Assembly (NCBI GenBank): GCA_038078735.1
Contig: JBBTTI010000003.1
Coordinates: forward strand, 8,538 to 72,537
Origin: Patescibacteria group bacterium
GTDB taxonomy: Bacteria > Patescibacteriota > Minisyncoccia > Minisyncoccales > CAZWNE01
Direction of reading: 5' to 3'
DNA: 64,000 nt
Shown: positions 2,651-55,744 of the stretch, piece by piece
Layout of the letters: every line of letters begins with the position of its first letter
Numbering within the stretch: the stretch's first letter is position 1
Notes under the pieces: model-generated
What the model saw: the letters and a program-made list of their open reading frames with translations, nothing else
The model's database searches: none
Told to the model about the DNA's origin: nothing
Translations under genes and position numbers: made by a program

Positions 2651-3244
2651 TTACCATAGCCATTTGGGAATTGGAATAGCGATTGTCTTTATCTCGTCCT
2701 TTGTTGCTAATTTAAAAGAAATTGAGGTAGCGCAAAGGCAGATGTTTCTATCTTGGCGAACAATAGAATGACCCAATAATTCTAACTGATTGCGAATTTG
2801 GTGGAATCGTCCGGTCTTAAGATTAATCTTAAGAAGAGAGTATTTATTATTAGAAGTAATAACTTCATAGTCAAGTTCGGCTCTTTTTGGTTTACCCGCA
2901 TCGCCTTTTTTAAGAAAATTTACTAAGTTTCCTTTGTTTTGTTTCGGCCTTCCTAAAATCAAGGCGTGATATATTTTCTCAATCGTTCTATTTCTAAATT
3001 GTTCTGAAAGCCGGGAAGCCCCTTTGCTGGTTTTAGCAAATAAAACAATGCCTGAAGCCGGTCTGTCCAAGCGGTGCAGCAAACCCAAAAAGACGTTTCC
3101 GGGCTTCTTATACTTCTCTTTGAGATAAGACTTCACCTCATCCATCAAGCACCTATCGCCCGTAATGTCTCCCTGCGTCAAAACCCCTGCCGGCTTAAAC
3201 ACCGCAATCAAATGATTATCCTCGTATAAAACTTTTAAATCCAT
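2651..3244 (-). CDS. RluA-family pseudouridine synthase
   Basis: HRLDRPASG catalytic motif of RluA/RluD-type synthases. No S4 domain. Confidence 0.75.
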   Translation of the reverse strand: MDLKVLYEDNHLIAVFKPAGVLTQGDITGDRCLMDEVKSYLKEKYKKPGNVFLGLLHRLDRPASGIVLFAKTSKGASRLSEQFRNRTIEKIYHALILGRPKQNKGNLVNFLKKGDAGKPKRAELDYEVITSNNKYSLLKINLKTGRFHQIRNQLELLGHSIVRQDRNICLCATSISFKLATKDEIKTIAIPIPKWLW

Positions 3245-4500: not shown

Positions 4501-5472
4501 TTAATAATTTGTCGTAATCGTTCGGTGATAAGGCAATAACGGTTCATTTTCTTTAGATAAAACCCATAAAATCCAATCGAGATTACTTGATGTTAAACCC
4601 CTGCCTAAGCCGTTTAATTCCCCAAGGAGCAATTCACAAGCATAAATGGTATTTGTCCTTATTTCTATTTCTTCCCGAGAATTCTTTTCAATTAACTCAT
4701 AATTCGCGAGCTTATTCTTTAATTTTTCACTATAAACTAGTATCCCCTCTGACTCTAAAAGTTGTGGCAACTTATAATCGGCAAATATAGTTAGATCTTC
4801 CATGTTTTTAAAATATCCCGTATTCTTATTTTGAAAAGCGTAATTTATATCACTGACAAATAATTGGGCTCTTTTTAAAAAATATATCTTTTGTCCATTG
4901 GATTCGAAATAATCATTAAAACTTGGGAAATCATTAATAATTAACTCCACAAGTTTATTAACGTTATTTTTTGCCGCCGTAACTAAATTTATAGCCTTGC
5001 CATTATATTTTTCTTGAAGTATTTTAAAGTTTTCTCGGATAATTTCGTGTCGTTCTTTCAACAGTAATAACTCTCCCCTACTCTCAAAAATCTTAGCAAA
5101 TTCGTCAAAAGTTATTTCCGACAAATATGATGCATCAAGTAATTTTTTATCAGCTAAAAACGCTTTTTTAATCGCGTAAGAAAAAGCGTAATAGCCATGC
5201 AGCCACTGGTCGTCTTTTTCAAACTCCCACCGTTTTTTCTCTTGAGTATTCCAAAAACAAAAATTAATACTATCTAGAAAAAAATAGTATTGAACAGTTT
5301 CTTCGGGACTCCCTAAAAATTGCAAGACATTATCCCAGCCAGGAATAGGATATTTTTCAAGTTTTTTTGCTAAAAGAGTAATTTTCGAATTATCTATCCT
5401 AACCGAAGAACTGTTTTTTACAACAGGATCAATTGATCTTAAAATTTTTTCTTTGATAGAAATATTCTCCAT
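4501..5472 (-). CDS. DUF2419/Qng1-like queuosine salvage family protein (tentative)
   Basis: 323 aa. Motif pattern (IPGWDN, FFLDSINFCFW, LHGYYAFSYA) is recalled from the Qng1/DUF2419 family. The assignment is from memory and is not certain. Confidence 0.45.
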   Translation of the reverse strand: MENISIKEKILRSIDPVVKNSSSVRIDNSKITLLAKKLEKYPIPGWDNVLQFLGSPEETVQYYFFLDSINFCFWNTQEKKRWEFEKDDQWLHGYYAFSYAIKKAFLADKKLLDASYLSEITFDEFAKIFESRGELLLLKERHEIIRENFKILQEKYNGKAINLVTAAKNNVNKLVELIINDFPSFNDYFESNGQKIYFLKRAQLFVSDINYAFQNKNTGYFKNMEDLTIFADYKLPQLLESEGILVYSEKLKNKLANYELIEKNSREEIEIRTNTIYACELLLGELNGLGRGLTSSNLDWILWVLSKENEPLLPYHRTITTNY

Positions 5473-8868: not shown

Positions 8869-8943
8869 AAATTTAGCTTACCTTTTCATTTCATCTCCGC
8901 CAAGAGACAACTATTTGGACATCGGATGTCCAAATAGCGTAGG

Positions 8944-9078
8944 CTATTTTTTATTTATGTATTTTAATAAAGCGATTATGCCTAAAACCAACAGGGTAGT
9001 CGCTAAAGTATAGGTAATCCAAGAAAAAAACATCATCCCGCCGCCTGCTCCGCCCATCATATAATTATAATCCATCAT
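8944..9078 (-). CDS. possible 44-aa Met/Gly-rich membrane peptide
   Basis: MMDYNYMMGGAGGGMMFFSWITYTLATTLLVLGIIALLKYINKK. It falls below the ORF-track cutoff, has no clear SD, and hairpins lie just upstream. Confidence 0.2.
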   Translation of the reverse strand: MMDYNYMMGGAGGGMMFFSWITYTLATTLLVLGIIALLKYINKK

Positions 9079-9261
9079 AGATCAAGTCCGCCTCTGGCGG
9101 ACGCAGATAAAGATGAAGCAACAGCTTCATCGCCTAATCGACCTTTCTATATTTTATTATACACTAAATTTTTAATTTATTATCAAACCCCACCAGTAGT
9201 AATAACTATGCTATAGCAATGATATTACTATTCCTAAATTTTATATTTGAATAAATAAGAA

Positions 9262-9292
9262 CGGGTAAACGCGAATGCGTTTACCCGTTTTA
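9262..9292 (+). terminator. hairpin + T-run (GGGTAAACGC..GCGTTTACCC-TTTT)
   Basis: Perfect 11-bp stem followed by tttta. Confidence 0.4.
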
Positions 9293-9374
9293 GCTCAATC
9301 TGTTGCCGAGCTTCTGTTATGCAGAAGCGAAGGCGAAGAAGAGATTTATCTCTTCGCCTAATTGTTTTGGCCAG

Positions 9375-16252: not shown

Positions 16253-17686
16253 ATGCTTAAACTTTATAATACTTTATCGCGAAAAAAGGAAATATTGAGA
16301 CCCTTCGCTAAGGCTCAGGGCGAAAAACTAAAGTTTTTCATCTGCGGGCCGACGGTTTATGATTTTTCTCACTTAGGCCACGCCAGAACCTATATTGCTT
16401 TTGATATGATCGTGAAATATCTAAGGCAAAAAGGATATGATGTTTTTTATCTGCAAAACATAACTGATCTTGATGACAAAATCATAAAACGTGCGGAGGA
16501 AAAAAATATTACGCCCCAAAAGTTAGCCAGAGATTTTGAGAAAGAATATTTAAAAGATATTAAGGCCCTTAAAATAACCAGCGTTTCAAAATACGCCAGA
16601 GCCACGGATTATATTAAGGAAATTATCAGTCAGACAGAACGACTTTTGAAAAAGGGTTTTGCCTATCAAATAGAAGACGGAATTTATTTTGATATTTTAA
16701 AATTTAAAGATTACGGCAAACTTTCACGGAGAACGGTTCTCCGGGCCGAAGACGGAGTTTCTCGGATTGATGAAAGTGTTAAAAAAATAAATAAAGGCGA
16801 CTTCTGCTTGTGGAAATTTTCAAAACCAGAAGAACCAACATGGACTAGTCCGTGGGGTCAAGGCCGGCCCGGGTGGCATATTGAAGATACGGCCATTACG
16901 GAAAAGTTCTTTGGATCGCAATACGATATTCACGGCGGCGCCAGAGATCTGATATTTCCCCATCATGAAGCGGAAATATCCCAAATGGAAGCGATTTCCG
17001 GTAAAAAACCTTTGGTAAAATATTGGCTTCATACCGGATTTTTAACCGTCGATGGCCAGAAAATGTCAAAATCACTGGGGAATTTCATTACTATCCAAGA
17101 TTTTCTCAAAAATCACTCGCCCCGCTTACTCCGATTTTTAGTCATAAAAAGCCACTATCGATCTCCGATTGATTATAGTGAGAAAGTTATTTCTCAAACT
17201 AAAAAAGAATTGGAACGGATAGATGAATTTATTGATAAACTATTGAGGCCGAACCTCCATAGTTTAAAATCGGGGAGGTTCGGCCTCTTAAAATTCAAGA
17301 ACGCTTTTGATAACGCTATGAATGATGATTTTAATACGTCAAAGGCAATAGCTGTAATTTTTAATTTGATTAATAAAGGAAACGCTATAATTGCCCAAAA
17401 TAAATTATCTTCTAGCGATGCTAAAAATATTTTAGGCTTTTTAAAAATAATTGATAAATTCTTTGGTTTTATCTTTTGGCAGAAATCCGAAAATAAGCAA
17501 CCTCAGAGGTTGCTTAGCCTAGTTAAGCAACGGCAAAAATATCGGGAACAGGACAATTGGCAAAAAGCTGACGAGATGAGAGAGGAAATTAAAAAACTAG
17601 GATATTCAATAGAAGACACAAGTAAAGGACCAGTAATTAAAAGAAGCTTAGCTTCTCACTTAGAAGCTAAGCTTCTAAGTACCTAA
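16253..17686 (+). CDS. cysS: cysteine--tRNA ligase
   Basis: HLGHARTY and KMSKSLGN class I motifs. The last ~12 codons are encoded by a family B palindrome. Confidence 0.9.
   Translation: MLKLYNTLSRKKEILRPFAKAQGEKLKFFICGPTVYDFSHLGHARTYIAFDMIVKYLRQKGYDVFYLQNITDLDDKIIKRAEEKNITPQKLARDFEKEYLKDIKALKITSVSKYARATDYIKEIISQTERLLKKGFAYQIEDGIYFDILKFKDYGKLSRRTVLRAEDGVSRIDESVKKINKGDFCLWKFSKPEEPTWTSPWGQGRPGWHIEDTAITEKFFGSQYDIHGGARDLIFPHHEAEISQMEAISGKKPLVKYWLHTGFLTVDGQKMSKSLGNFITIQDFLKNHSPRLLRFLVIKSHYRSPIDYSEKVISQTKKELERIDEFIDKLLRPNLHSLKSGRFGLLKFKNAFDNAMNDDFNTSKAIAVIFNLINKGNAIIAQNKLSSSDAKNILGFLKIIDKFFGFIFWQKSENKQPQRLLSLVKQRQKYREQDNWQKADEMREEIKKLGYSIEDTSKGPVIKRSLASHLEAKLLST
17495..17515. repeat. intragenic perfect palindrome AAGCAACCTC-A-GAGGTTGCTT inside cysS
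   Basis: 10-1-10 inverted repeat read in-frame as ...KQPQRLLS... Confidence 0.7.
17642..17676. repeat. REP-like palindrome, family B (AGAAGCTTAGCTTCT cactt AGAAGCTAAGCTTCT), copy 1
   Basis: Perfect 15-bp arms. It forms the C-terminus and stop region of cysS. Near-identical copies lie at 19683 and 33072, with a variant at 32942. Confidence 0.85.
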
Positions 17687-19682: not shown

Positions 19683-19717
19683 AGAAGCTTAGCTTCTCAC
19701 TTAGAAGCTAAGCTTCT
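19683..19717. repeat. REP-like palindrome, family B, copy 2 (between convergent recR and rplU; overlaps the rplU stop codon)
   Basis: Identical 15-5-15 palindrome. Confidence 0.85.
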
Positions 19718-21027: not shown

Positions 21028-21064
21028 AAAATTATTTTAGCATTTTTAAAAATTTAACCAAAAC

Positions 21065-21833
21065 TAGCGAGAAGTGTTCTCGCTAATATTTATTCAATTA
21101 CAACTTGATCAAAATCGGCTAATTCTTTTTTAGATTGCAACCAATCGTTAACAAATCTTTGGCAGCCTTGAACGCCGCCCATTAGTTCGGTTAGAAATTC
21201 CCTGCTGGTTAAAGATGGAAAATTTTTCTCGTCTAAATAATCTATGTAGCTTGACCAGCGATATTTCTTTAAAAATTTTAATACTTTCTGAAAGTCCCCA
21301 CCCTTAATCCCCTTTTCTTTCCAACCCGGAACTATTATCGCCACAGGGTTAGTATGAATATAAACAAAAACGGTCATTAGTTGATTGTCATTTTTAATAT
21401 GAACTAGCTTATATCTTCCATCAAACAAATGTCCGCTTCTTTTATATTTTTTATTATAATATCCGCCGTACCCAGCGCCAAGCTTTCTCATAAATTTACT
21501 AATCCCACCTTCGCCAAGCTGTCTAAGCAATAAATGGATATGATTCGGCATCAAACAAAACGCCAATATCTCCACTAATAGTTTTCTCTTCCTTCTTTTA
21601 TCCCTTTCTAATAGTCCGAGAAATGTTCTCGAACTATTGAAACTTCGACGAAAATTCCATAACGCTGGCGCTTCATCGTTAAATTCAAACAGATCATGAA
21701 TCATCCTAAAATAATCTTTTTCGTCGCGAAAAAGCTTCAAGCCTTCTATCGCTCTGATTACAACATGGTATATTTCTCCAGTAACTAATGGCGGTCGTTT
21801 TGTGGACATATAATGTGCCGAGAAATGTTCTCG
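21065..21833 (-). mobile_element. RAYT/IS200-like unit 1: Y1 transposase gene flanked by CGAGAA..TTCTCG hairpins
   Basis: TAGCGAGAAgtgTTCTCGCTA at 21065..21085, CGAGAAatgTTCTCG at 21819..21833, and an intragenic copy at 21617..21631. Confidence 0.6.
21090..21809 (-). CDS. COG1943 / IS200-like HuH Y1 transposase (REP-associated tyrosine transposase-like)
   Basis: HuH motif LMPNHIHLLL and the YIHTNPV tyrosine motif. Paralogous to 40181..40879. Confidence 0.7.
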   Translation of the reverse strand: MSTKRPPLVTGEIYHVVIRAIEGLKLFRDEKDYFRMIHDLFEFNDEAPALWNFRRSFNSSRTFLGLLERDKRRKRKLLVEILAFCLMPNHIHLLLRQLGEGGISKFMRKLGAGYGGYYNKKYKRSGHLFDGRYKLVHIKNDNQLMTVFVYIHTNPVAIIVPGWKEKGIKGGDFQKVLKFLKKYRWSSYIDYLDEKNFPSLTSREFLTELMGGVQGCQRFVNDWLQSKKELADFDQVVIE

Positions 21834-21863
21834 CTAGTTTATAATAACACAGAACCTTTCTAT

Positions 21864-27502: not shown

Positions 27503-27585
27503 CAGAGGGGTGTCCTCCGCTGTTTTCTGTGGTTGGCTTAGCCAACCACAACTACTGCTTAATCTGGAAGGTTTCAGGGTTAATT
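27503..27585. repeat. ~83-bp direct repeat (left copy) duplicating the 3' end of the clpB-like gene; boundary of island 2
   Basis: cagagg..tcctccgctgttttctgtggttggcttagccaaccacaactactgcttaatctggaaggtttc is about 93% identical to 29175..29259. This left copy has in-frame stops. Confidence 0.8.
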
Positions 27586-27597
27586 TTTATTCGAAAT

Positions 27598-27618
27598 GAT
27601 AGACGTTCAACGTCTATC
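27598..27618. repeat. REP-like palindrome, GATAGACGTT-c-AACGTCTATC variant
   Basis: Perfect 10-1-10. Sister copy at 35690..35710. Confidence 0.7.
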
Positions 27619-27662
27619 ATTCGTCTATTACTATGTTTATCACTATTTTAATAATAAAAAGG

Positions 27663-27702: not shown

Positions 27703-28782
27703 TTAACTCAGCTCTCCGATTGCTACGCCACGAAACTGCTTACGCTTTTGAAGACTTTGCTCTTCAAGAATTTTGCGGTTTGCCGGTGTAATGGTAGCAA
27801 TAATATCGCCGATCGAATCGGATTTGCCTTGCGACATTTTGTAGAGATTCGCTATTCCCGCGAGCGTCATCTCCCGACCATCTTTGGCAAAATGGTTAGC
27901 AACCCAAGCGATCATTCTTGCATCCTCACCGACATAAGCGATGTCGGAAAGCGCGAAAACTCGGCCCTTGCCATTAAACATCATTGTCAGACCCTCGCCC
28001 TTGAGCCACTCCACGACCTGAACATCAGTCTGGCTGTCCCCGACATACATCACCCTCCTTTTTGGAATGCCGAATCTTTGACAAACCGTTTCCATTACCT
28101 CCCGCTTCTGGGTTTGGCCAACAGGATGAACCGTCCTTAGTAATCGGCCGACAGGCATATTGTAAACCTTGTCCCAAATAAATCTGGTGAATTCGTCGTA
28201 GTCGGCTTGATGTTCAGGAACGATATCCCCTGTTTCTTTGTAGTAATCAACAACTGGTTTTCTAGCGATTGATACCATGAAGCCCAGGAGTTGCGCTGTT
28301 TCTGTCGCACTGATAGGAATCTCATCAAACCCCGTAACTCTAGTACAGTTGGTCTGACTGAAATTGAATCCCACCTTGTGACAATACGCCCTGACAAACC
28401 ACTCGTAGCTGGTGGAAATCATCCAGACATTGCAGCCGCGACGAAGATCGGTCAAGGCCTCTTTGACAAAAGGCACCACTCGGAGACTCTTACTGGAAAA
28501 ATCTTGTAACCATCGAGAGTCAGCTCCCATCGCCTTGAAGAACGGCAGAACAACTTTCAAGGTATGACCGGAAGAATAGTTTGGGTCTTGGGGAATTAAA
28601 TGACAGTCGCCCCATACGTCATCAATCCCACTAAACCTCGCGTAGGCGCGCTCCCCGATTTCTTTACCTAAGCCGGACTTTTCAGCCAATGCCACCATAA
28701 TCTGTTGAGCATTGTCATTAATGACTTGCGGCCCTTCCAAATCCAGGATAACCCAAATTCCATTTATTTTTACCCACCTCAT
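27703..28782 (-). CDS. hypothetical HAD-like hydrolase-fold protein (atypical motif I) on a GC-rich island
   Basis: 359 aa at about 48% GC. N-terminal WVILDLEGP has DxE in place of DxDG. C-terminal VMYVGDSQTDVQ resembles HAD motif IV. Family assignment is tentative. Confidence 0.4.
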   Translation of the reverse strand: MRWVKINGIWVILDLEGPQVINDNAQQIMVALAEKSGLGKEIGERAYARFSGIDDVWGDCHLIPQDPNYSSGHTLKVVLPFFKAMGADSRWLQDFSSKSLRVVPFVKEALTDLRRGCNVWMISTSYEWFVRAYCHKVGFNFSQTNCTRVTGFDEIPISATETAQLLGFMVSIARKPVVDYYKETGDIVPEHQADYDEFTRFIWDKVYNMPVGRLLRTVHPVGQTQKREVMETVCQRFGIPKRRVMYVGDSQTDVQVVEWLKGEGLTMMFNGKGRVFALSDIAYVGEDARMIAWVANHFAKDGREMTLAGIANLYKMSQGKSDSIGDIIATITPANRKILEEQSLQKRKQFRGVAIGELS

Positions 28783-29174: not shown

Positions 29175-29259
29175 CAGAGGTCTGTCCTCCGCTGTTTTCT
29201 GTGGTTGGCTAAGCCAACCACAACTACTGCTTAATCTGGAAGGTTTCGGGGTCGATTTC
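29175..29259. repeat. ~83-bp direct repeat (right copy), overlapping the intact clpB-like 3' end and stop
   Basis: See 27503..27585. Includes the GTGGTTGGCTaAGCCAACCAC hairpin. Confidence 0.8.
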
Positions 29260-32458: not shown

Positions 32459-33063
32459 TTGAGATAACGATATTTTTTAAATTGGTCTTTAAAAAATTGA
32501 TATTTTTTATAACCGAATTTTTCCAGCATTTTTTTGATATCTTCTTTTTGCAATGGATCGAATTCCATAAAGATCATATTACTTTTGTCTTTAGCTTCTC
32601 TCAAAAATATCTTAATAATATCTAATCCTTTTTCTCCGGAAAAAAGAGCGATGTGCGGTTCTTTTTCCAAAACCGAAAGTTGGACTTCATTGATGCGTTC
32701 CGTTGCTATATAAGGCGGGTTGGCAAAGATGACATCGTATTTTTTCCTTCTGATTTTTTCAAACAAATCTGATTTATAAATTTTATATCTTTTTGGAGAT
32801 ATTCTATTAAGCTTTAAATTAATTTTAATCTGCTTAATCGCGCCTTCATATATATCAACGAAGTCTACTCGACTATTTTTAATATTTTTCAAAACAGCAA
32901 CCCCAATGCATCCCGAACCGGCAAATATATCTAACGCTTTTAGAGGCTTAGCTTCCTTTTGGAAGCTAAGCCTCTTCAGAGCTTTTTCTACCCAGAATTC
33001 AGTTTCAATACGAGGAATCAAAACTTTTTCCCTTAAATCAATTTGACAGTTTAAAAATTTCAT
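32449..33063 (-). CDS. prmC: release factor glutamine N5-methyltransferase PrmC/HemK-like
   Basis: SAM-binding DIFAGSGCIG and the NPPY motif (FANPPYI). An in-frame family-B-variant palindrome lies at 32942..32975. Confidence 0.8.
   Translation of the reverse strand: MKFLNCQIDLREKVLIPRIETEFWVEKALKRLSFQKEAKPLKALDIFAGSGCIGVAVLKNIKNSRVDFVDIYEGAIKQIKINLKLNRISPKRYKIYKSDLFEKIRRKKYDVIFANPPYIATERINEVQLSVLEKEPHIALFSGEKGLDIIKIFLREAKDKSNMIFMEFDPLQKEDIKKMLEKFGYKKYQFFKDQFKKYRYLKCY
32942..32975. repeat. family B variant palindrome (AGAGGCTTAGCTTCC tttt GGAAGCTAAGCCTCT) inside the prmC coding sequence
   Basis: Perfect 15-bp arms, read in-frame as ..KRLSFQKEAKPLKA.. Confidence 0.8.
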
Positions 33064-33071
33064 ATCCCAAA

Positions 33072-33106
33072 AGAAGCTTAGCTTCTCACTTAGAAGCTAA
33101 GCTTCT
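33072..33106. repeat. REP-like palindrome, family B, copy 3 (between the tgt stop and the prmC start)
   Basis: Identical to copies 1 and 2. Confidence 0.85.
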
Positions 33107-35281: not shown

Positions 35282-35689
35282 TTTTTTCGTCCTTTTTCTT
35301 TTCTTTTTCCGCCTTCATTTCTGCAACTCCTTGTCCTGTTTTTTCTTGGCCTCCTTGCCAGAAAAACTCATCAAGTCGTTCAGAAAGCCGATCGGAAATA
35401 TTGCTGCGAAGCAGCAATAAAATGACTAATTAATAATCAGCTTATTGCTACTTCGCAACTCCTTATTAAATTTTTAAAGAAGCTGGTTTCAATGCCTAAA
35501 TTATATCATACTACTCCAACTTTGTCAAGTTTTTGTACTGGTTCACATAATATGATACACCCAGCACTTGAAAAATATGAAAGGCAGGTACAATGGTTGC
35601 CGTATGACAATCTACGGCACAATTCTGCCCGGAGCAGCCGCTATTGCCCGTTCGGCGTTCCTGACAGATAAATTAACGGAGCGTGAGAT

Positions 35690-35710
35690 GATAGACGTTG
35701 AACGTCTATC
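35690..35710. repeat. REP-like palindrome GATAGACGTT-g-AACGTCTATC
   Basis: Perfect 10-1-10, followed by CATTAC as at 27619. Confidence 0.7.
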
Positions 35711-35748
35711 ATTACATTTCTCTCAAAAAAAAGGCACGGTGGAGAAAT

Positions 35749-36009
35749 TCAAGGCCGTGCCCGAGAGATAAGCTCTCCTTGTTGAGGAAGCGATTGAGCA
35801 ATTTTAGCATCTTTCTGAGCTATAGTTATGGCAGTTGCCATTGCTTGCGCCCCTTCTTTTTGTATCAAGTGCACAAATTGTCCAGGCAGAATTTGACCCT
35901 TAATATCATAGCCGTCTTTCCTTACCCAAGGAGCTTCATTTAGAACGAGATAATAGAAGATAAAATGAGATTCCGGAATAGAAATTCTTTTCTGTTTTAT
36001 TCCTAACAA
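35749..36009 (-). CDS. hypothetical small protein (doubtful)
   Basis: 86-aa ORF in the GC-rich island with no family match. May be a gene remnant. Confidence 0.2.
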   Translation of the reverse strand: MLGIKQKRISIPESHFIFYYLVLNEAPWVRKDGYDIKGQILPGQFVHLIQKEGAQAMATAITIAQKDAKIAQSLPQQGELISRARP

Positions 36010-36101
36010 TCTATTGCCTCCTCCATATTTTATTCTAAATAAACTACTAATCTACTAATTAAACTATATTATATATCTCAAATTTAATCAACAATTAGAA
36101 A

Positions 36102-36122
36102 TGTTAGACGTCTGGCGTCTAA
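36102..36122. repeat. REP-like palindrome family A variant GTTAGACG-tctgg-CGTCTAAC
   Basis: Perfect 8-5-8. Identical core at 55651..55671. Confidence 0.8.
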
Positions 36123-36146
36123 CATTACATCGCACAACTTGCGAGA

Positions 36147-40032: not shown

Positions 40033-40157
40033 AAAAAAAACGGCTTCCGCCGCAGGCAATAAAAAATACTCACCTCGAGAGGACTTAAATGCCCCTTGTC
40101 TGCGGATATTTATATATTACTCACCCCAAGATCTTTGTCAAGAGCCGAAGATGAACC

Positions 40158-40939
40158 GTAGATGTTTGACATCTACAAGCCTAATCAATTGATAATTTCC
40201 CAAGAATTTCTTTAGTATTTCTAACTAAAAGAGCATTATAAATAAATTCCTTATAACTTTTATTATTACCAGATGATAGTCCTAAACTATTTCTATCCCC
40301 TTCATCTATAATAAATAGATTACGTTTTAATAAAGTATCCTGAAGACTGCTAAAAGAATAATTTGTAGCAAAATCAAAAGCCTTATCAAATTGTTTAACG
40401 GCCGCCTCTGTCCCTCCGGGATAAAGTTCAATTGGATTCAAAACTTGAATATAAGCGTCAAGATACTGGATATACTCATCATTTTTTATTGTTTTTGACT
40501 TATATGATCCTTGGAAAACTTTCCCCGATTCTTTATATTTTGTATTAATATAATTAGTGAAACCACCACTAAGTTTTTTCATAAACATACTTACTCCGCC
40601 TTCCTTTATTTCTTTTAGCAGCAAGTGAAAATGGTTTGGCATTAAACAAAAAGAGAGAATTTTTACTAACGGTTTTGGCACCGGCCATTCTGCTGGCCTA
40701 CTAAAAGTATTATTTTTTACTTGACGAAAAATATTAGATAAAGAATATTCGTCATTAAAATAACGAAGAATTTTCAAAAAACGCCATTTATCATTATCGT
40801 CTTGTGTAATCGGCATTTTCCGATTACCTCGATTATAAACGTGGATATAATCACCCACCGTAAATGCTTCTTTTCTCATAGGTTTATTTTAATCCAATCC
40901 ATCCGTAGGTGTCAAACCGTAGATGTCAAACATCTACGG
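40158..40939 (-). mobile_element. RAYT/IS200-like unit 2: Y1 transposase gene flanked by GTAGATG..CATCTAC hairpins
   Basis: GTAGATGT-ttg-ACATCTAC at 40158..40176 and CCGTAGATG-tcaaa-CATCTACGG at 40917..40939, plus a degenerate half-copy at 40902..40915. Confidence 0.65.
40181..40879 (-). CDS. COG1943 / IS200-like HuH Y1 transposase (RAYT-like), paralog 2
   Basis: LMPNHFHLLL HuH motif, GGVSMFMKKL, YIQVLNP tyrosine-region motif. Paralogous to 21090..21809. Confidence 0.7.
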   Translation of the reverse strand: MRKEAFTVGDYIHVYNRGNRKMPITQDDNDKWRFLKILRYFNDEYSLSNIFRQVKNNTFSRPAEWPVPKPLVKILSFCLMPNHFHLLLKEIKEGGVSMFMKKLSGGFTNYINTKYKESGKVFQGSYKSKTIKNDEYIQYLDAYIQVLNPIELYPGGTEAAVKQFDKAFDFATNYSFSSLQDTLLKRNLFIIDEGDRNSLGLSSGNNKSYKEFIYNALLVRNTKEILGKLSID

Positions 40940-43330: not shown

Positions 43331-44008
43331 TTAATTGCCAATATTTTTGCCGTATCTTGATCGCCACTCCTGAATTTTTTTGTGGTTGCCCGAAATCAAA
43401 ACCTTGGGCACTCGCCACTTTTTAAAAATTTCGGGGCGCGTATATTGCGGATATTCAATAAAGCCTTTAGTTTTTGTAATTCTCTCTTTCAATAATTGAG
43501 GTTTGCCCAAGACTCCGGGGATTAATCTTGCTACTGTTTCCGTTAAAACCATTGCCGGCAATTCCCCGCCCATCAAATCATAATCCCCTATTGATAATTC
43601 CATATCTGCCAAATTTTTTGCCACTCTTTCATCCACCCCTTCGTATCTGCCGCAAATCATAATAATCTGATTTAATTTTGAAAGTTTGTAAGCAATCTGC
43701 TGATTAAATTTTTTCCCGCGAGGAGTAAATAAAACCACTTTTCGCTTAGAGGGACTTAGTCCCTTTTTTAAGGGACTAAGTCCCTTAACGGCTTTATATA
43801 TCGGTTCGATTTTTAGTACCATACCAAGGCCCCCGCCAAATGGCCGATCGTCAACCGTCCGGTGGACATCGGATGTCCACTTCCTTAGATTATGGACATT
43901 AATCTTGATCAATTTTTTTGCTTGGGCTCTGGCAATTAAGCTCTCGCTTAAGTAAGAACTGAATAAATTTGGAAAAATTGTTATTATGTCAAAAGAAAGC
44001 CGCGCCAT
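43331..44008 (-). CDS. trmD: tRNA (guanine37-N1)-methyltransferase
   Basis: SPOUT knot motifs (HRTVDDRPFGGGLGMV, ICGRYEGVDERV, IGDYDLMGGELPAM). Confidence 0.9.
   Translation of the reverse strand: MARLSFDIITIFPNLFSSYLSESLIARAQAKKLIKINVHNLRKWTSDVHRTVDDRPFGGGLGMVLKIEPIYKAVKGLSPLKKGLSPSKRKVVLFTPRGKKFNQQIAYKLSKLNQIIMICGRYEGVDERVAKNLADMELSIGDYDLMGGELPAMVLTETVARLIPGVLGKPQLLKERITKTKGFIEYPQYTRPEIFKKWRVPKVLISGNHKKIQEWRSRYGKNIGN
43750..43785. repeat. family D palindrome inside trmD (AGGGACTTAGTCCCTT tttt AAGGGACTAAGTCCCT)
   Basis: 16-bp perfect arms. Each arm is itself a GGGACT-t-AGTCCC palindrome. Read in-frame as KGLSPLKKGLSPSKRK. Confidence 0.8.
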
Positions 44009-46882: not shown

Positions 46883-47557
46883 TCAGAATTTGAAACTATT
46901 TCTATGTATAGCACATCGTCCAAATCTTTTCAACATTTCAAGGTGTAATTTCGTTCCATAGCCCTTATGAAGATCAAATCGGTATTTTGGGAACTTTTTA
47001 TGATACTTGAGCATTATTCTGTCCCTCGTCACTTTGGCTAAAATTGAAGCCGCGGCGCAGGAAAAAACTTTTTCATCGCCCTTCACGATTAGTTTGTAGT
47101 TTATAATTTTTAGTTTATAGTTTTTGATATTATTGCCGTCTATTATCAAAAAATCGGGCTTCAACTTTTTAATCGCTCTTGCCATCGCTAACTCTGCCGC
47201 ATTTTTAATATTAATCTTATCTATGATTTTTTCTGAAACAATGCCAATCCCCCATCTTATATTTTTATCTTTTGTTATTAAGTTATAAAAAAATTCCCGC
47301 TGTTTTGCAGATAATTGCTTTGAGTCCCTAATTTTTAGGAGAACGCTTCTCCCTTGGAGAAACGTTCTCCAATTTATTATCACCGCTCCTGCCACCACCG
47401 GCCCGGCCAACGGCCCACGGCCGGCCTCATCCAACCCAGCCACATTCTTAAATCCTTTTTTCCACAATTTTTTTTCTTCCGCTAGTGTCGCATACCGCAT
47501 GTTTTTTATTTTAGCACAAAAAAAGATGGGAAAGTTAGATAAATCTAACTTTCCCAT
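46883..47557 (-). CDS. rnhB: ribonuclease HII
   Basis: GLDEAGRGPLAGPVVAGAVI and later DSK...AASILAK motifs. The true start may be the internal Met (MRYATLAEEK). Confidence 0.85.
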   Translation of the reverse strand: MGKLDLSNFPIFFCAKIKNMRYATLAEEKKLWKKGFKNVAGLDEAGRGPLAGPVVAGAVIINWRTFLQGRSVLLKIRDSKQLSAKQREFFYNLITKDKNIRWGIGIVSEKIIDKINIKNAAELAMARAIKKLKPDFLIIDGNNIKNYKLKIINYKLIVKGDEKVFSCAAASILAKVTRDRIMLKYHKKFPKYRFDLHKGYGTKLHLEMLKRFGRCAIHRNSFKF

Positions 47558-54674: not shown

Positions 54675-54724
54675 AACCGTTGACATCGATTTGCAAAATG
54701 ATAAACTAAAAATAGAATTAAAAT

Positions 54725-54973
54725 ATGTCTAAAAGATTACAAAAAATTTCATCGTACTATGCGGTTTTTGATCTAGCCCAAGAGGGCGGATATAACGTTT
54801 CTTTCCCGGATTTTCCCGGCTGTGTTACCTTTGGAAAAACCTTTGAAGAATCTAAAAAAATGGCAAAAGAAGTATTGGAACTTTGGCTTGAAGAACTTTC
54901 ATCTCAAAAAGAGGAAATCCCGATTAAAACTTTTAGACCGATTATTGATGAAGTAGAAGTCGCTCTTCCTTAA
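54725..54973 (+). CDS. hicB: HicB-family antitoxin (short form)
   Basis: YYAVFDLAQEGGYNVSFPDFPGCVTFGKTFEESKKMAKEVLELWLEE matches the HicB/UPF0150 fold. Confidence 0.75.
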   Translation: MSKRLQKISSYYAVFDLAQEGGYNVSFPDFPGCVTFGKTFEESKKMAKEVLELWLEELSSQKEEIPIKTFRPIIDEVEVALP

Positions 54974-54976
54974 ATT

Positions 54977-55189
54977 ATGAAGCCGCTTGCCACTGGTAAA
55001 TTGATAAAAATCTTAAAAGAAAACGATTTTGTATTATCTCGCCAAAAAGGCAGTCATCAAATTTGGAAAAACCTAAAAACCAACATAATCGTTCCTGTTC
55101 CTCTGCACGGTAAATCAAATCCTATCCACCTCGGAACATTTATCGCCATAATAAAACAATCAAAAATTCCAAAAGAAAAATTTAAATAA
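54977..55189 (+). CDS. hicA: HicA-family mRNA interferase toxin
   Basis: LKENDFVLSRQKGSHQIWKN...VPVPLHGKSNPIHLGTFIAIIKQSKI matches the YcfA/HicA fold. Confidence 0.75.
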   Translation: MKPLATGKLIKILKENDFVLSRQKGSHQIWKNLKTNIIVPVPLHGKSNPIHLGTFIAIIKQSKIPKEKFK

Positions 55190-55200
55190 ATTATTTCTAT

Positions 55201-55237
55201 AAAAAACAGCTCCGCCAAAACGGAACTGTTTTTTTAT
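55201..55237 (+). terminator. rho-independent terminator after hicA
   Basis: AAAAAACAGCTCCG..CGGAACTGTTTTTTT. Confidence 0.65.
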
Positions 55238-55249
55238 AGGGATGTTAGT

Positions 55250-55270
55250 GTTAGGTACTCAGTGTCTAAC
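55250..55270. repeat. REP-like palindrome family A (GTTAGGTACT-c-AGTGTCTAAC)
   Basis: Preceded by a gttag half-site. Confidence 0.7.
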
Positions 55271-55650
55271 ATCCTAACCGGCGCCTATTGTAACTCTACC
55301 CAAAGAGTTGTGAGAACCATCGCTAGCCTCGAAAAAAATACTATTATCATTGACCAAAACGGTCAATGATGGCAGTCCTAGACTGCCTAAGCGATGGGCC
55401 TCAGTTCGGAATGATTCCCAATTATCGCGAAGTAACCTCTCCGCCCTTTTGGCTGCCATATCGAATTCCATTTTTTCCTCCTTCTCACGCCTGCCTAAAT
55501 AGGTCAGGACTTATAGAGTACAAGGCCGCTATTTCCCTAGCGGCGAGATGAACACCAGCGGAGAACCGTTCTCCGTTAAGCTGACGATCATTTCGCCGCC
55601 AAGGAATTTTATAAAAGAGCTTTCCCAAATCTGAATTCGCAATTTAGAAT

Positions 55651-55683
55651 GTTAGACGTCTGGCGTCTAACACCACGTCTAAC
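55651..55683. repeat. REP-like palindrome family A variant (GTTAGACG-tctgg-CGTCTAAC + extra CGTCTAAC arm)
   Basis: Same core as 36102..36122. Confidence 0.8.
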
Positions 55684-55744
55684 AACATTTCGAACTAAGA
55701 TTTAGTGTGGGGCGAGAAGCATTTTATTGCTCCTGCCCCACTTT

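Follow-up and report, generated by a model that had tools for sequence, protein, structure and literature searches.

REP-associated tyrosine transposases (RAYTs), with REP standing for repetitive extragenic palindrome, are the textbook example of a 'domesticated' transposase. Two paralogous genes of this kind, ORF1 (21090-21809, minus strand, 239 amino acids (aa)) and ORF2 (40181-40879, minus strand, 232 aa), were analyzed together with their hairpins in a 64-kb stretch of contig JBBTTI010000003.1, here called the window. The window has a G+C content of 38% and a gene content typical of a genome of the candidate phyla radiation (CPR)/Patescibacteria, and the closest homologs carry the label Candidatus Nealsonbacteria. 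Each of the two genes forms with its hairpins a unit (unit 1 and unit 2), and both units are class-2 (RAYT/TIRYT-like) Y1 cassettes and not IS200 elements. A comparison which covered about 170 related loci in all identified them as members of a widespread gene-plus-hairpin cassette of CPR bacteria, which is gained and lost as a unit and often has a third, matching hairpin inside the gene.

In the classification of Quentin et al. 2018 (PMC6006769), the tyrosine motif Y...NP marks class 2 (RAYT) and Y...Q marks IS200, whose subclass 1.1 possesses the motifs DH[VI]H and Y---Q. The E. coli TnpA-REP/RAYT REPtron (subclass 2.2, PMC6006769; structure 4ER8, PMC3479197) has the HuH-Y1 fold in common with the CPR proteins and is their best structural match. 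It is also alike in the Y...NP motif, in the cognate palindromes around the gene (usually inverted), in the paralog-specific hairpin families and in having no near-identical gene copies. In contrast to it, the CPR proteins are longer (~235 vs 165 aa), contain a disordered insert of roughly 30 aa before the HuH strand and a helical tail of ~80 aa, and miss the NCBIfam equivalog cut-off. The CPR hairpins are perfect, short-looped palindromes, most of them without the GTAG guide, and their dispersed copies are few instead of hundreds. A single CPR genome, about 1 Mb in size or smaller, can contain at least five paralogs.

Subclass 2.1 TnpA-Y1, also called Bertels Group 1 or TIRYT and forming 'TIRtrons' (PMC6006769, PMC5581495, PMC3733652), is the largest RAYT group and was reported without associated repeats. 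Its described features are NH[YF]H or NHVH, FQ, Y[IV]HLNP, an SS tail motif and a median length of 238 aa (PMC6006769 Table 1). The CPR cassettes resemble it in flanking terminal inverted repeats (some of them double palindromes), in low copy number and in diverged paralogs and, on inspection by eye, in this length and motif set. However, subclass 2.1 was reported without REP-like structures near the gene, whereas cognate hairpins are the rule in the CPR loci. The TIRYT repeat consensus GGGG[AT][CG]A[CG] was not seen, nor was a Bac_DnaA_C or other helix-turn-helix (HTH) domain in the tail of the two proteins. The surveys cited for subclass 2.1 do not name CPR bacteria. A literature search found no link of RAYTs to CPR/Patescibacteria; the one paper containing both phrases mentions only a KEGG annotation in an archaeon. 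No description of the family-wide three-hairpin cassette of CPR bacteria, of its grammar or of the filled, empty and solo-hairpin states came up in the literature searched. The loci analyzed here represent a very large CPR branch, apparently of the subclass 2.1 kind, which shows an unmistakable gene-hairpin partnership. With a simple readable grammar, several diverged paralogs per tiny genome, and all three states at one conserved junction, it opens to experiment the questions of how hairpins are recognised by Y1 nucleases, how nuclease cassettes give rise to REP-like repeats and why streamlined genomes keep such genes.

Class and fold of the two Y1 proteins

Both proteins matched the Pfam family PF01797 (Y1_Tnp), with 40 and 42.7 bits against a cut-off of 23, and both possess the motif CLMPNH(I/F)HLLL. 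ORF1 has the HuH motif NHIH at residues 89-92 and Tyr150 within YIHTNP; ORF2 has NHFH and YIQVLNP, with one extra residue in an otherwise class-2 tyrosine motif. H90, H92, and Y150 were invariant across 48 homologs. At E<=1e-3, ORF1 had 3422 homologs and ORF2 had 692. The two proteins are 39% identical over 194 aa (E=4e-36), and tblastn found no third Y1 paralog in the window. A candidate third gene at 50-691, with a hairpin ~140 nt into the ORF, was rejected as the ORF is fmt.

The catalytic motifs are intact and the predicted fold is RAYT-like. The AlphaFold (AF2) model of ORF1 had a mean predicted local distance difference test score (pLDDT) of 83 and a predicted template-modelling score (pTM) of 0.80. 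Its top Foldseek match was 4er8_A, the E. coli TnpA-REP bound to a REP hairpin (E=5e-7), followed by weaker matches to the TnpA of IS608 and ISDra2 (E ~4e-3); Foldseek probability was at least 0.97 for 4er8, 2a6m, 2xm3 and 2vjv. PDB searches by sequence, with ORF1 or a 12-sequence profile, gave marginal matches only (ISDra2, E ~0.02). The IS200 subclass 1.1 set of DH[VI]H and Y---Q in a protein of ~150 aa was not found; both proteins have NH[IF]H and Y...NP at 232-239 aa. An earlier note on this DNA, made from its letters alone, had placed two HuH-Y1 genes here, described them as IS200/RAYT-like and given them the motifs LMPNH(I/F)HLLL and YI..NP. The ORF calls, the conserved HuH and tyrosine residues and the PF01797 search, which the note itself had proposed, bear out the two genes. 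The first motif is present in both proteins, while YI..NP fits ORF1 and fails in ORF2 by the additional residue. The RAYT half of the description stands by the Foldseek ranking and Y...NP, and the IS200 half falls by motifs, length, and fold rank.

By eye, the alignments displayed a set close to that of subclass 2.1, namely NH[IFV]H, FQ, Y[IV]H.NP, an SS tail and ~238 aa. Judged by this motif inspection and not by the profiles of the original authors, the features of the two ORFs fit subclass 2.1, that is Bertels Group 1 or TIRYTs. The tail is helical in the AF2 model and gave no Pfam match to a C-terminal HTH (Bac_DnaA_C, HTH_23, HTH_28) at E up to 0.1. Scans of the PADLOC and PHROGs libraries gave no match. 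In public gene calls the start of ORF2 lies 21 codons downstream, giving 211 aa (compared with P0121); this shorter form removes the N-terminal strand GDYIHVYNRG, which is conserved and aligned family-wide.

Hairpins of the window units and of their CPR homologs

The 64 kb contain exactly three copies of the hairpin core of unit 1, CGAGAAnnnTTCTCG, namely at 21068, at 21617 within ORF1 and at 21819; 0.19 copies are expected, and none of 100 shuffles reached three. The downstream hairpin TAGCGAGAA-gtg-TTCTCGCTA (21061-21087, stem 21065-21085) is situated a few bases past the ORF1 stop and folds as single-stranded DNA (ssDNA) with -8.3 kcal/mol (z -5.8). On the gene strand a T-run comes next, which makes this a terminator-like site, and a side role as terminator is likely. 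The internal hairpin (21605-21642; core CGAGAA-atg-TTCTCG at 21617-21631) is extended to 17 pairs, folds with -10.9 kcal/mol (z -6.0) and encodes about residues 56-69 of ORF1 (SFNSSRTFLGLLER). The upstream hairpin, CGAGAA-atg-TTCTCG with a CTAGTTT arm (21819-21840), ends 9 nt upstream of the ORF1 ATG and folds with -4.7 kcal/mol (z -3.0). The two flanks are inverted repeats (21061-21082 vs 21819-21840; 22 nt, 86% complementary). Three hairpins of the form GGAGAA-nnn-TTCTCC (16727-16743, 47354-47372 and 55559-55575), two of them inside ORFs, differ from the unit 1 core at stem position 6 only and were not counted as members of its family.

In unit 2, GTAGATG-N-CATCTAC is present in exactly two copies in 64 kb (40158 and 40919) against 0.00 expected. 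The downstream hairpin is (CC)GTAGATGT-ttg-ACATCTAC (40156-40178; ssDNA fold -6.0 kcal/mol) and the upstream one CCGTAGATGT-caa-ACATCTACGG (40917-40939; -9.9 kcal/mol, z -4.6). The flanks are again inverted repeats, with 21 nt complementary to 100% (40156-40176 vs 40919-40939). Both units therefore possess the terminal inverted repeats described for subclass 2.1/TIRYT, and here the repeats themselves are the hairpins. The unit 2 hairpin is a 'double-foot' palindrome with GTAG on one arm and CTAC on the other, the type known from the REPs of subclass 2.4 (PMC6006769). Over all five hairpins, the ssDNA folding energies ranged from -4.7 to -10.9 kcal/mol and z from -3.0 to -6.0 against shuffled controls, with the copy inside ORF1 being the most stable. 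A partial hairpin copy, CCGTAGGTGTCAAA (40903-40916, within 40886-40916, minus strand), supplies on the gene strand the TTGACA which forms the -35 box of a promoter-like site of ORF2, TTGACA-18-TAAAAT, with 11/12 matches as a consensus match only; this side role of the partial copy is likely. The -10 box ends 7 nt before the ATG (40886-40915, minus strand), hence the ORF2 transcript may be leaderless.

To relate hairpins and genes beyond the window, 80 homolog-encoding loci were sampled from GTDB species genomes of many different CPR lineages, and 78 Y1 genes were scored, with 619 further ORFs from these loci as controls. Stems had to be perfect and to have 7 bp or more, and copies were matched by identity of the 7 loop-proximal bases with one mismatch allowed. 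Matched upstream and downstream hairpins were found at 46/78 Y1 genes and at 3/619 control ORFs. An internal copy matching a flank was present in 34/78 and 2/619, respectively (41 of the 78 genes under a looser rule), and all three copies were present in 26/78 and 0/619. The hairpin centres lie at a median of -37 upstream, at +183 from the ATG for the internal copy (range 114-222) and at +16 after the stop. In the family, -10-like boxes adjoin many upstream hairpins. In the window and in the family the gene is thus flanked by its own palindromes, the REPtron arrangement.

The stem sequence varies widely among loci (e.g. GCCGAGAA, ATCGGGGT, TTAGAGGT, AAGGCCTC, and TTGGACAT) while the copies within one locus agree. 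Across 64 loci, protein identity and hairpin-core identity were correlated (Spearman 0.22; 0/2000 permutations reached the observed value), and core identity was 0.81 for protein pairs more than 65% identical vs ~0.35 for distant pairs. Stem positions 7-13, which were not fixed by the selection, were 70-94% Watson-Crick paired with all pair types present, vs 23-52% when the partner was shifted by one base. As judged from the aligned loci, the copies at one locus evolve in concert. Among stem mismatches, G-T and A-C were equally frequent (4 vs 4), which is too few to separate RNA-level from DNA-level pairing.

The internal copies of the family occupy all three reading frames, and their stems reach 18 bp within coding sequence. 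The linker in which they lie has the same length with and without a copy (31 vs 30.7 aa). From these observations, the constraint at this place is read as one on the nucleic acid and not on the peptide, and the in-gene hairpin clearly illustrates how the needs of a nucleic acid can determine a stretch of protein. The equal linker length also led to rejection of the internal copy as a recent additive insertion; it is better explained as old and maintained, or as decayed in some lineages. In the AF2 model of ORF1, residues 54-71 are the only internal segment with pLDDT <50. An in-frame cognate palindrome within the gene, in a peripheral variable region, is also known from subclass 2.4 TnpA-REP of Cyanobacteria and Bacteroidetes (PMC6006769). 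There the insertions are variable and situated between HuH and Tyr, whereas the CPR copy has one fixed place before HuH, ~183 nt from the ATG; in ORF1 the copy covers residues 56-69 and HuH residues 89-92. The constancy of the CPR linker is a further difference, and the subclass 2.4 motifs WQ and YIxNNP and its median length of 194 aa are unlike those of the CPR proteins.

A common grammar was observed in the hairpins of 56 genes. Counted from the loop, stem position 5 is G in 50/56 genes and position 4 is A in 42/56 (the G5A4 grammar), T and G prevail at positions 1 and 2, free variation is seen at positions 3, 6, and 7, and the outer stem consists largely of A/T. The loops have 3 nt, mostly c-N-g. 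Both window units follow this grammar, with C-G-A-G-A-A and A-G-A-T-G-T read towards the loop. Very dense occurrence for a reduced genome was seen in the Nealsonbacteria metagenome-assembled genome (MAG) GCA_016188865.1, with at least five Y1 paralogs in ~83 kb sampled. Four of its paralogs have the common core CGAGAA and differ in the next three base pairs (ATA, TGA, GGT, GAG), and each paralog's own hairpin copies agree over arms of 8-13 bp. Compared with ORF1, the four scored paralogs are each 63-71% identical. On this pattern, the invariant G-A may be a conserved contact and the variable positions may be discriminators among paralogs. Two diverged Y1 genes within 10 kb were also noted at several other loci, namely L083 (1068-1814 and 10001-10726), L007 and L012.

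Cassette gain and loss, and the explanations considered

ORF1 is located between a Na/Ca-exchanger gene (NaCa) and rmuC, and ORF2 between yceG and rplJ. A metagenome scan with the neighbouring NaCa as query gave 80 loci, and the backbone permease - NaCa - RmuC - L21 - recR - dnaB is conserved. The family hidden Markov model (HMM) detected Y1 genes in only 3 of these 80 loci: at the same NaCa|RmuC junction as in the window (L085), upstream of the permease (L107) and between L21 and recR (L156). The junction is empty in ~37 distinct loci, where the gap measures -3 to ~100 nt and a hairpin is usually absent. Only the window, L085, L001 and L002 have it filled, and these represent three lineages scattered among empty ones in a rough NaCa tree. 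Stable vertical inheritance, considered from the shared synteny of the window, L001, and L002, was dropped on this distribution as most relatives are empty. In L113, which is near L001 in the NaCa tree, a solo hairpin of the CGAGAA type, TCCGAGAA-cgg-TTCTCGGA, stands directly after the NaCa stop, at the position of the upstream hairpin in L001. For ORF2, a gene 75% identical to it (L165) has the GTAGATGT hairpin on both sides and adjoins pabB instead of yceG/rplJ; other relatives adjoin a Na/Ca exchanger or sit upstream of yceG, with GGCGATGT or TGTTGATGT hairpins. Like hairpins in new gene contexts indicate that gene and hairpins travel together. Comparison of gene orders shows the cassette with its hairpins as one block, which some loci have and others lack at junctions that are conserved in other respects.

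All empty sites were too distant in sequence from the filled ones to place the exact cassette boundaries, and the closest relative, L085, is filled and mosaic. Its identities to the window are uneven (NaCa 95%, Y1 protein 80%, permease 53%), which makes the region a recombination mosaic, and its NaCa is separated from the Y1 gene by an ORF for a small membrane protein and by a terminator (L085 2340-2760). Cassettes of both the p1 type and the p2 type were found directly downstream of Na/Ca-exchanger genes (L166 152-2103; window, L001, L002 and L085), which may reflect a preference for their 3' end as target, or coincidence.

Taken together, each unit is probably a compact cassette of ~0.8 kb which combines a class-2 HuH-Y1 ssDNA nuclease/ligase gene of the RAYT/TIRYT kind with the enzyme's own recognition hairpins. 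By analogy with E. coli TnpA-REP, the protein would bind the hairpins extruded on single-stranded DNA and would nick and rejoin beside them. The invariant G-A would serve as the common contact, and the variable positions would tie each of the many paralogs in a genome to its own sites. The cassette could be moved or deleted by cleavage and rejoining at the flanking pair, or simply by recombination of the near-identical palindromes with each other, and its loss would leave solo hairpins, as in L113, or doublets resembling REPs or REP doublets forming hairpins (REPINs). According to the structure model, the internal copy would lie in a disordered surface loop and be harmless to the protein. It would most likely act, again by analogy, as a cis site by which the enzyme limits its own expression or integrity, and the same copying process would keep it identical to the flanking copies.

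As a tentative extension, to which we give somewhat less than even credence, the CPR proteins might form a new RAYT subclass in which the recognition hairpin is built into the gene, as a third, co-evolving copy at a fixed place of the coding sequence, and each gene would serve its own protein as a substrate or as a target of regulation. A code of two parts (G5A4 plus positions 3, 6 and 7) would let at least five orthogonal nuclease/hairpin pairs coexist in a genome of ~1 Mb or less, and solo hairpins and doublets would be relics or products of cassette turnover. If true, this would give a direct view of REPs/REPINs arising from RAYT cassettes.

Several observations weigh against a cassette of nuclease and recognition hairpins. 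Binding, cleavage, and the strand acted on are taken by analogy from TnpA-REP and IS608, and perfect palindromes could equally be double-stranded binding sites. The GT[AG]G guide tetranucleotide at the hairpin foot occurs in only 10/159 copies family-wide; in the window, unit 2 has it (GTAG...CTAC) and unit 1 does not. The two flanking copies have inverted orientation at 25 loci and direct orientation at 15; the ends follow no single geometry. The upstream hairpin of unit 1 is weak, with a stem of 6 bp and the lowest stability of the five. The internal copy is missing from ORF2 and from its entire clade, where the two flanking copies stand alone. Neither the unit 1 nor the unit 2 hairpin family has an extra copy elsewhere in the 64-kb window, and at other loci extra copies are few (~16 in ~675 kb). 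The NCBIfam model NF047646 (REP_Tyr_transpos) gave 44.8 and 35.1 bits, below its equivalog cut-off of 80; on these scores the two proteins are relatives and not equivalogs of proteobacterial RAYTs.

The units might also be ordinary autonomous IS200/IS605 insertion sequences, selfish and transposing as single-stranded circles through left-end and right-end hairpins. IS200, IS608, and ISDra2 (subclass 1.1) belong to the same superfamily, have the same catalytic chemistry and are minimal elements of one small Y1 gene between two hairpins, of a size like the ~0.8 kb found here. They are also alike in being gained and lost as a block at intergenic sites: a conserved junction has the cassette in some loci and lacks it in others, and the cassette occupies several intergenic sites of the same gene backbone (L107 and L156), reaches new contexts together with its hairpins and has at least five paralogs in one MAG. 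Nevertheless, this explanation is unlikely. The motifs are NH[IF]H and Y...NP, where subclass 1.1 has DH[VI]H and Y...Q (PMC6006769), the proteins have ~235 instead of ~150 aa and their fold is nearer to TnpA-REP. The same palindrome stands at both ends, in place of distinct left and right ends in one orientation. Near-identical copies were not seen, neither in the window with its 39% identity between the paralogs nor in the sampled MAG paralogs, each 63-71% identical to ORF1, and the genes lie inside long contigs, unlike multicopy repeats. They have no tnpB partner, and their neighbours are housekeeping genes (rmuC, Na/Ca exchanger, yceG, rplJ).

The symmetry of the hairpins allows a different role, in which they are double-stranded operators for a Y1 protein turned dimeric autoregulator or local transcription factor, and in which they at no time serve as ssDNA substrates. 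Perfect palindromes with often complementary first and last loop bases (cag, cgg, tca) have the symmetry of a dimer site, the upstream copy lies at the promoter or 5' end of the gene (median -37) where -10-like boxes abut many of the hairpins, and the absence of a G-T excess over A-C mismatches (4 vs 4) gives no sign of RNA-level pairing. But the catalytic His-u-His and Tyr, needless for a mere DNA binder, are invariant in the 48 homologs, and known relatives bind ssDNA hairpins (4er8). Copies extend their own palindrome past the shared core, up to 18 bp inside the ORF, which argues for selection on intrastrand pairing, and solo copies and doublets occur at distant sites. An operator role without any ssDNA substrate is accordingly regarded as very unlikely. 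An explanation of the hairpins as common intrinsic terminators or mRNA-stabilising stem-loops, which would have no relation to the protein and would match by coincidence, is scarcely credible, even though T-runs follow several hairpins including the downstream one of unit 1, the outer parts of many stems are A-rich and T-rich and dispersed hairpins are mostly at gene ends. Terminators need no mutual match, yet the upstream, internal, and downstream copies of one gene match each other with strong enrichment over the 619 control ORFs; the internal copy within coding sequence is senseless as a terminator, and the hairpin sequence follows the protein phylogeny.

Dispersed hairpins of the window

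Outside the two units, the window contains 24 hairpins with a stem of at least 8 bp and a 3-nt loop, vs 1.6 in mononucleotide shuffles. Twelve of the 24 follow the G5A4 grammar against 0.07 expected, and 7 of these 12 are in the non-coding 15% of the window. The dispersed hairpins are mostly situated at gene ends. Three identical inverted doublets of 35 nt (roughly 40 nt as AAAAGAAGCTTAGCTTCT-CACTT-AGAAGCTAAGCTTCTAA) were found. The first, AGAAGC-tta-GCTTCT / AGAAGC-taa-GCTTCT at 17642-17676, is REPIN-like, has the G5A4 grammar, resembles the hairpin flanking the L053 Y1 gene and is probably related to the cassette hairpins. The second lies at 19683-19717 between the convergent recR and rplU, and the third at 33072-33106 with a diverged copy at 32942-32975. 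Two of the doublets bracket dnaB-recR. No cognate Y1 gene for the AGAAGC doublets is present in the window.

Two solo hairpins are also probably related. One is AATGATAGACGT-tca-ACGTCTATCATT (27595-27621), with G5A4 grammar and an inverted partner, a second ATGATAGACGT hairpin with loop tga, at 35688-35712. The other, CTATTTGGACAT-cgg-ATGTCCAAATAG (8911-8937), has the core of the hairpins flanking the L046 Y1 gene and a shorter relative at 43862-43880. By their shared grammar, the genome carries REP-like and REPIN-like elements of the same kind as the cassette hairpins; their presumed partners are paralogs beyond the window or cassettes that have been lost.

These results bear on the hairpin claims of the earlier note in different ways. 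Its statements that each gene is bracketed by its own hairpin and that ORF1 contains a third copy hold, with three and two exact copies in 64 kb and inverted flanks; the third copy, at 21617, turns out to be a family-wide feature (34-41 of 78 genes). The co-variation of hairpin and gene, on which the note had made its view depend, is present across the 64 loci, and inverted doublets of the sort which it had suggested looking for are present in the window as the REPIN-like AGAAGC doublets. The scattered TAGAC-core palindromes do share the family grammar but belong to other sub-families without a cognate gene in the window. An 'active or recently active REP-RAYT system' is not established, as neither hairpin family of the two units is dispersed in the 64 kb.

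Some further hairpins were noted. The long intergenic stretches 8869-9374, 35426-36146, and 54675-55694 are packed with strong hairpins and gave no Rfam match at the gathering threshold; the Rfam scan of the window detected only six tRNAs, none near either unit. In L006, a span of 3 kb contains three copies (2727-2747, 3201-3221, 5339-5359) of AAAGGACGC-yta-GCGTCCTTT, a different dispersed family with no adjoining Y1 gene. Inverted TGTGGTTGGC-tta/taa-GCCAACCACA hairpins at 27528-27550 and 29200-29222 bracket a HAD-like hydrolase gene (27703-28782), which is not a Y1 gene; they have GTGG...CCAC 'double feet' and lack the G5A4 grammar. Inside fmt, a 10-bp palindrome, GTACAGGGGT-gca-ACCCCTGTAC (178-200), encodes the conserved motif KYRGATPVQ, and its 8-bp core is that of the hairpin flanking the L047 Y1 gene. 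By its sequence, this palindrome could be due to chance (roughly 0.06 expected) or could be an intragenic REP.

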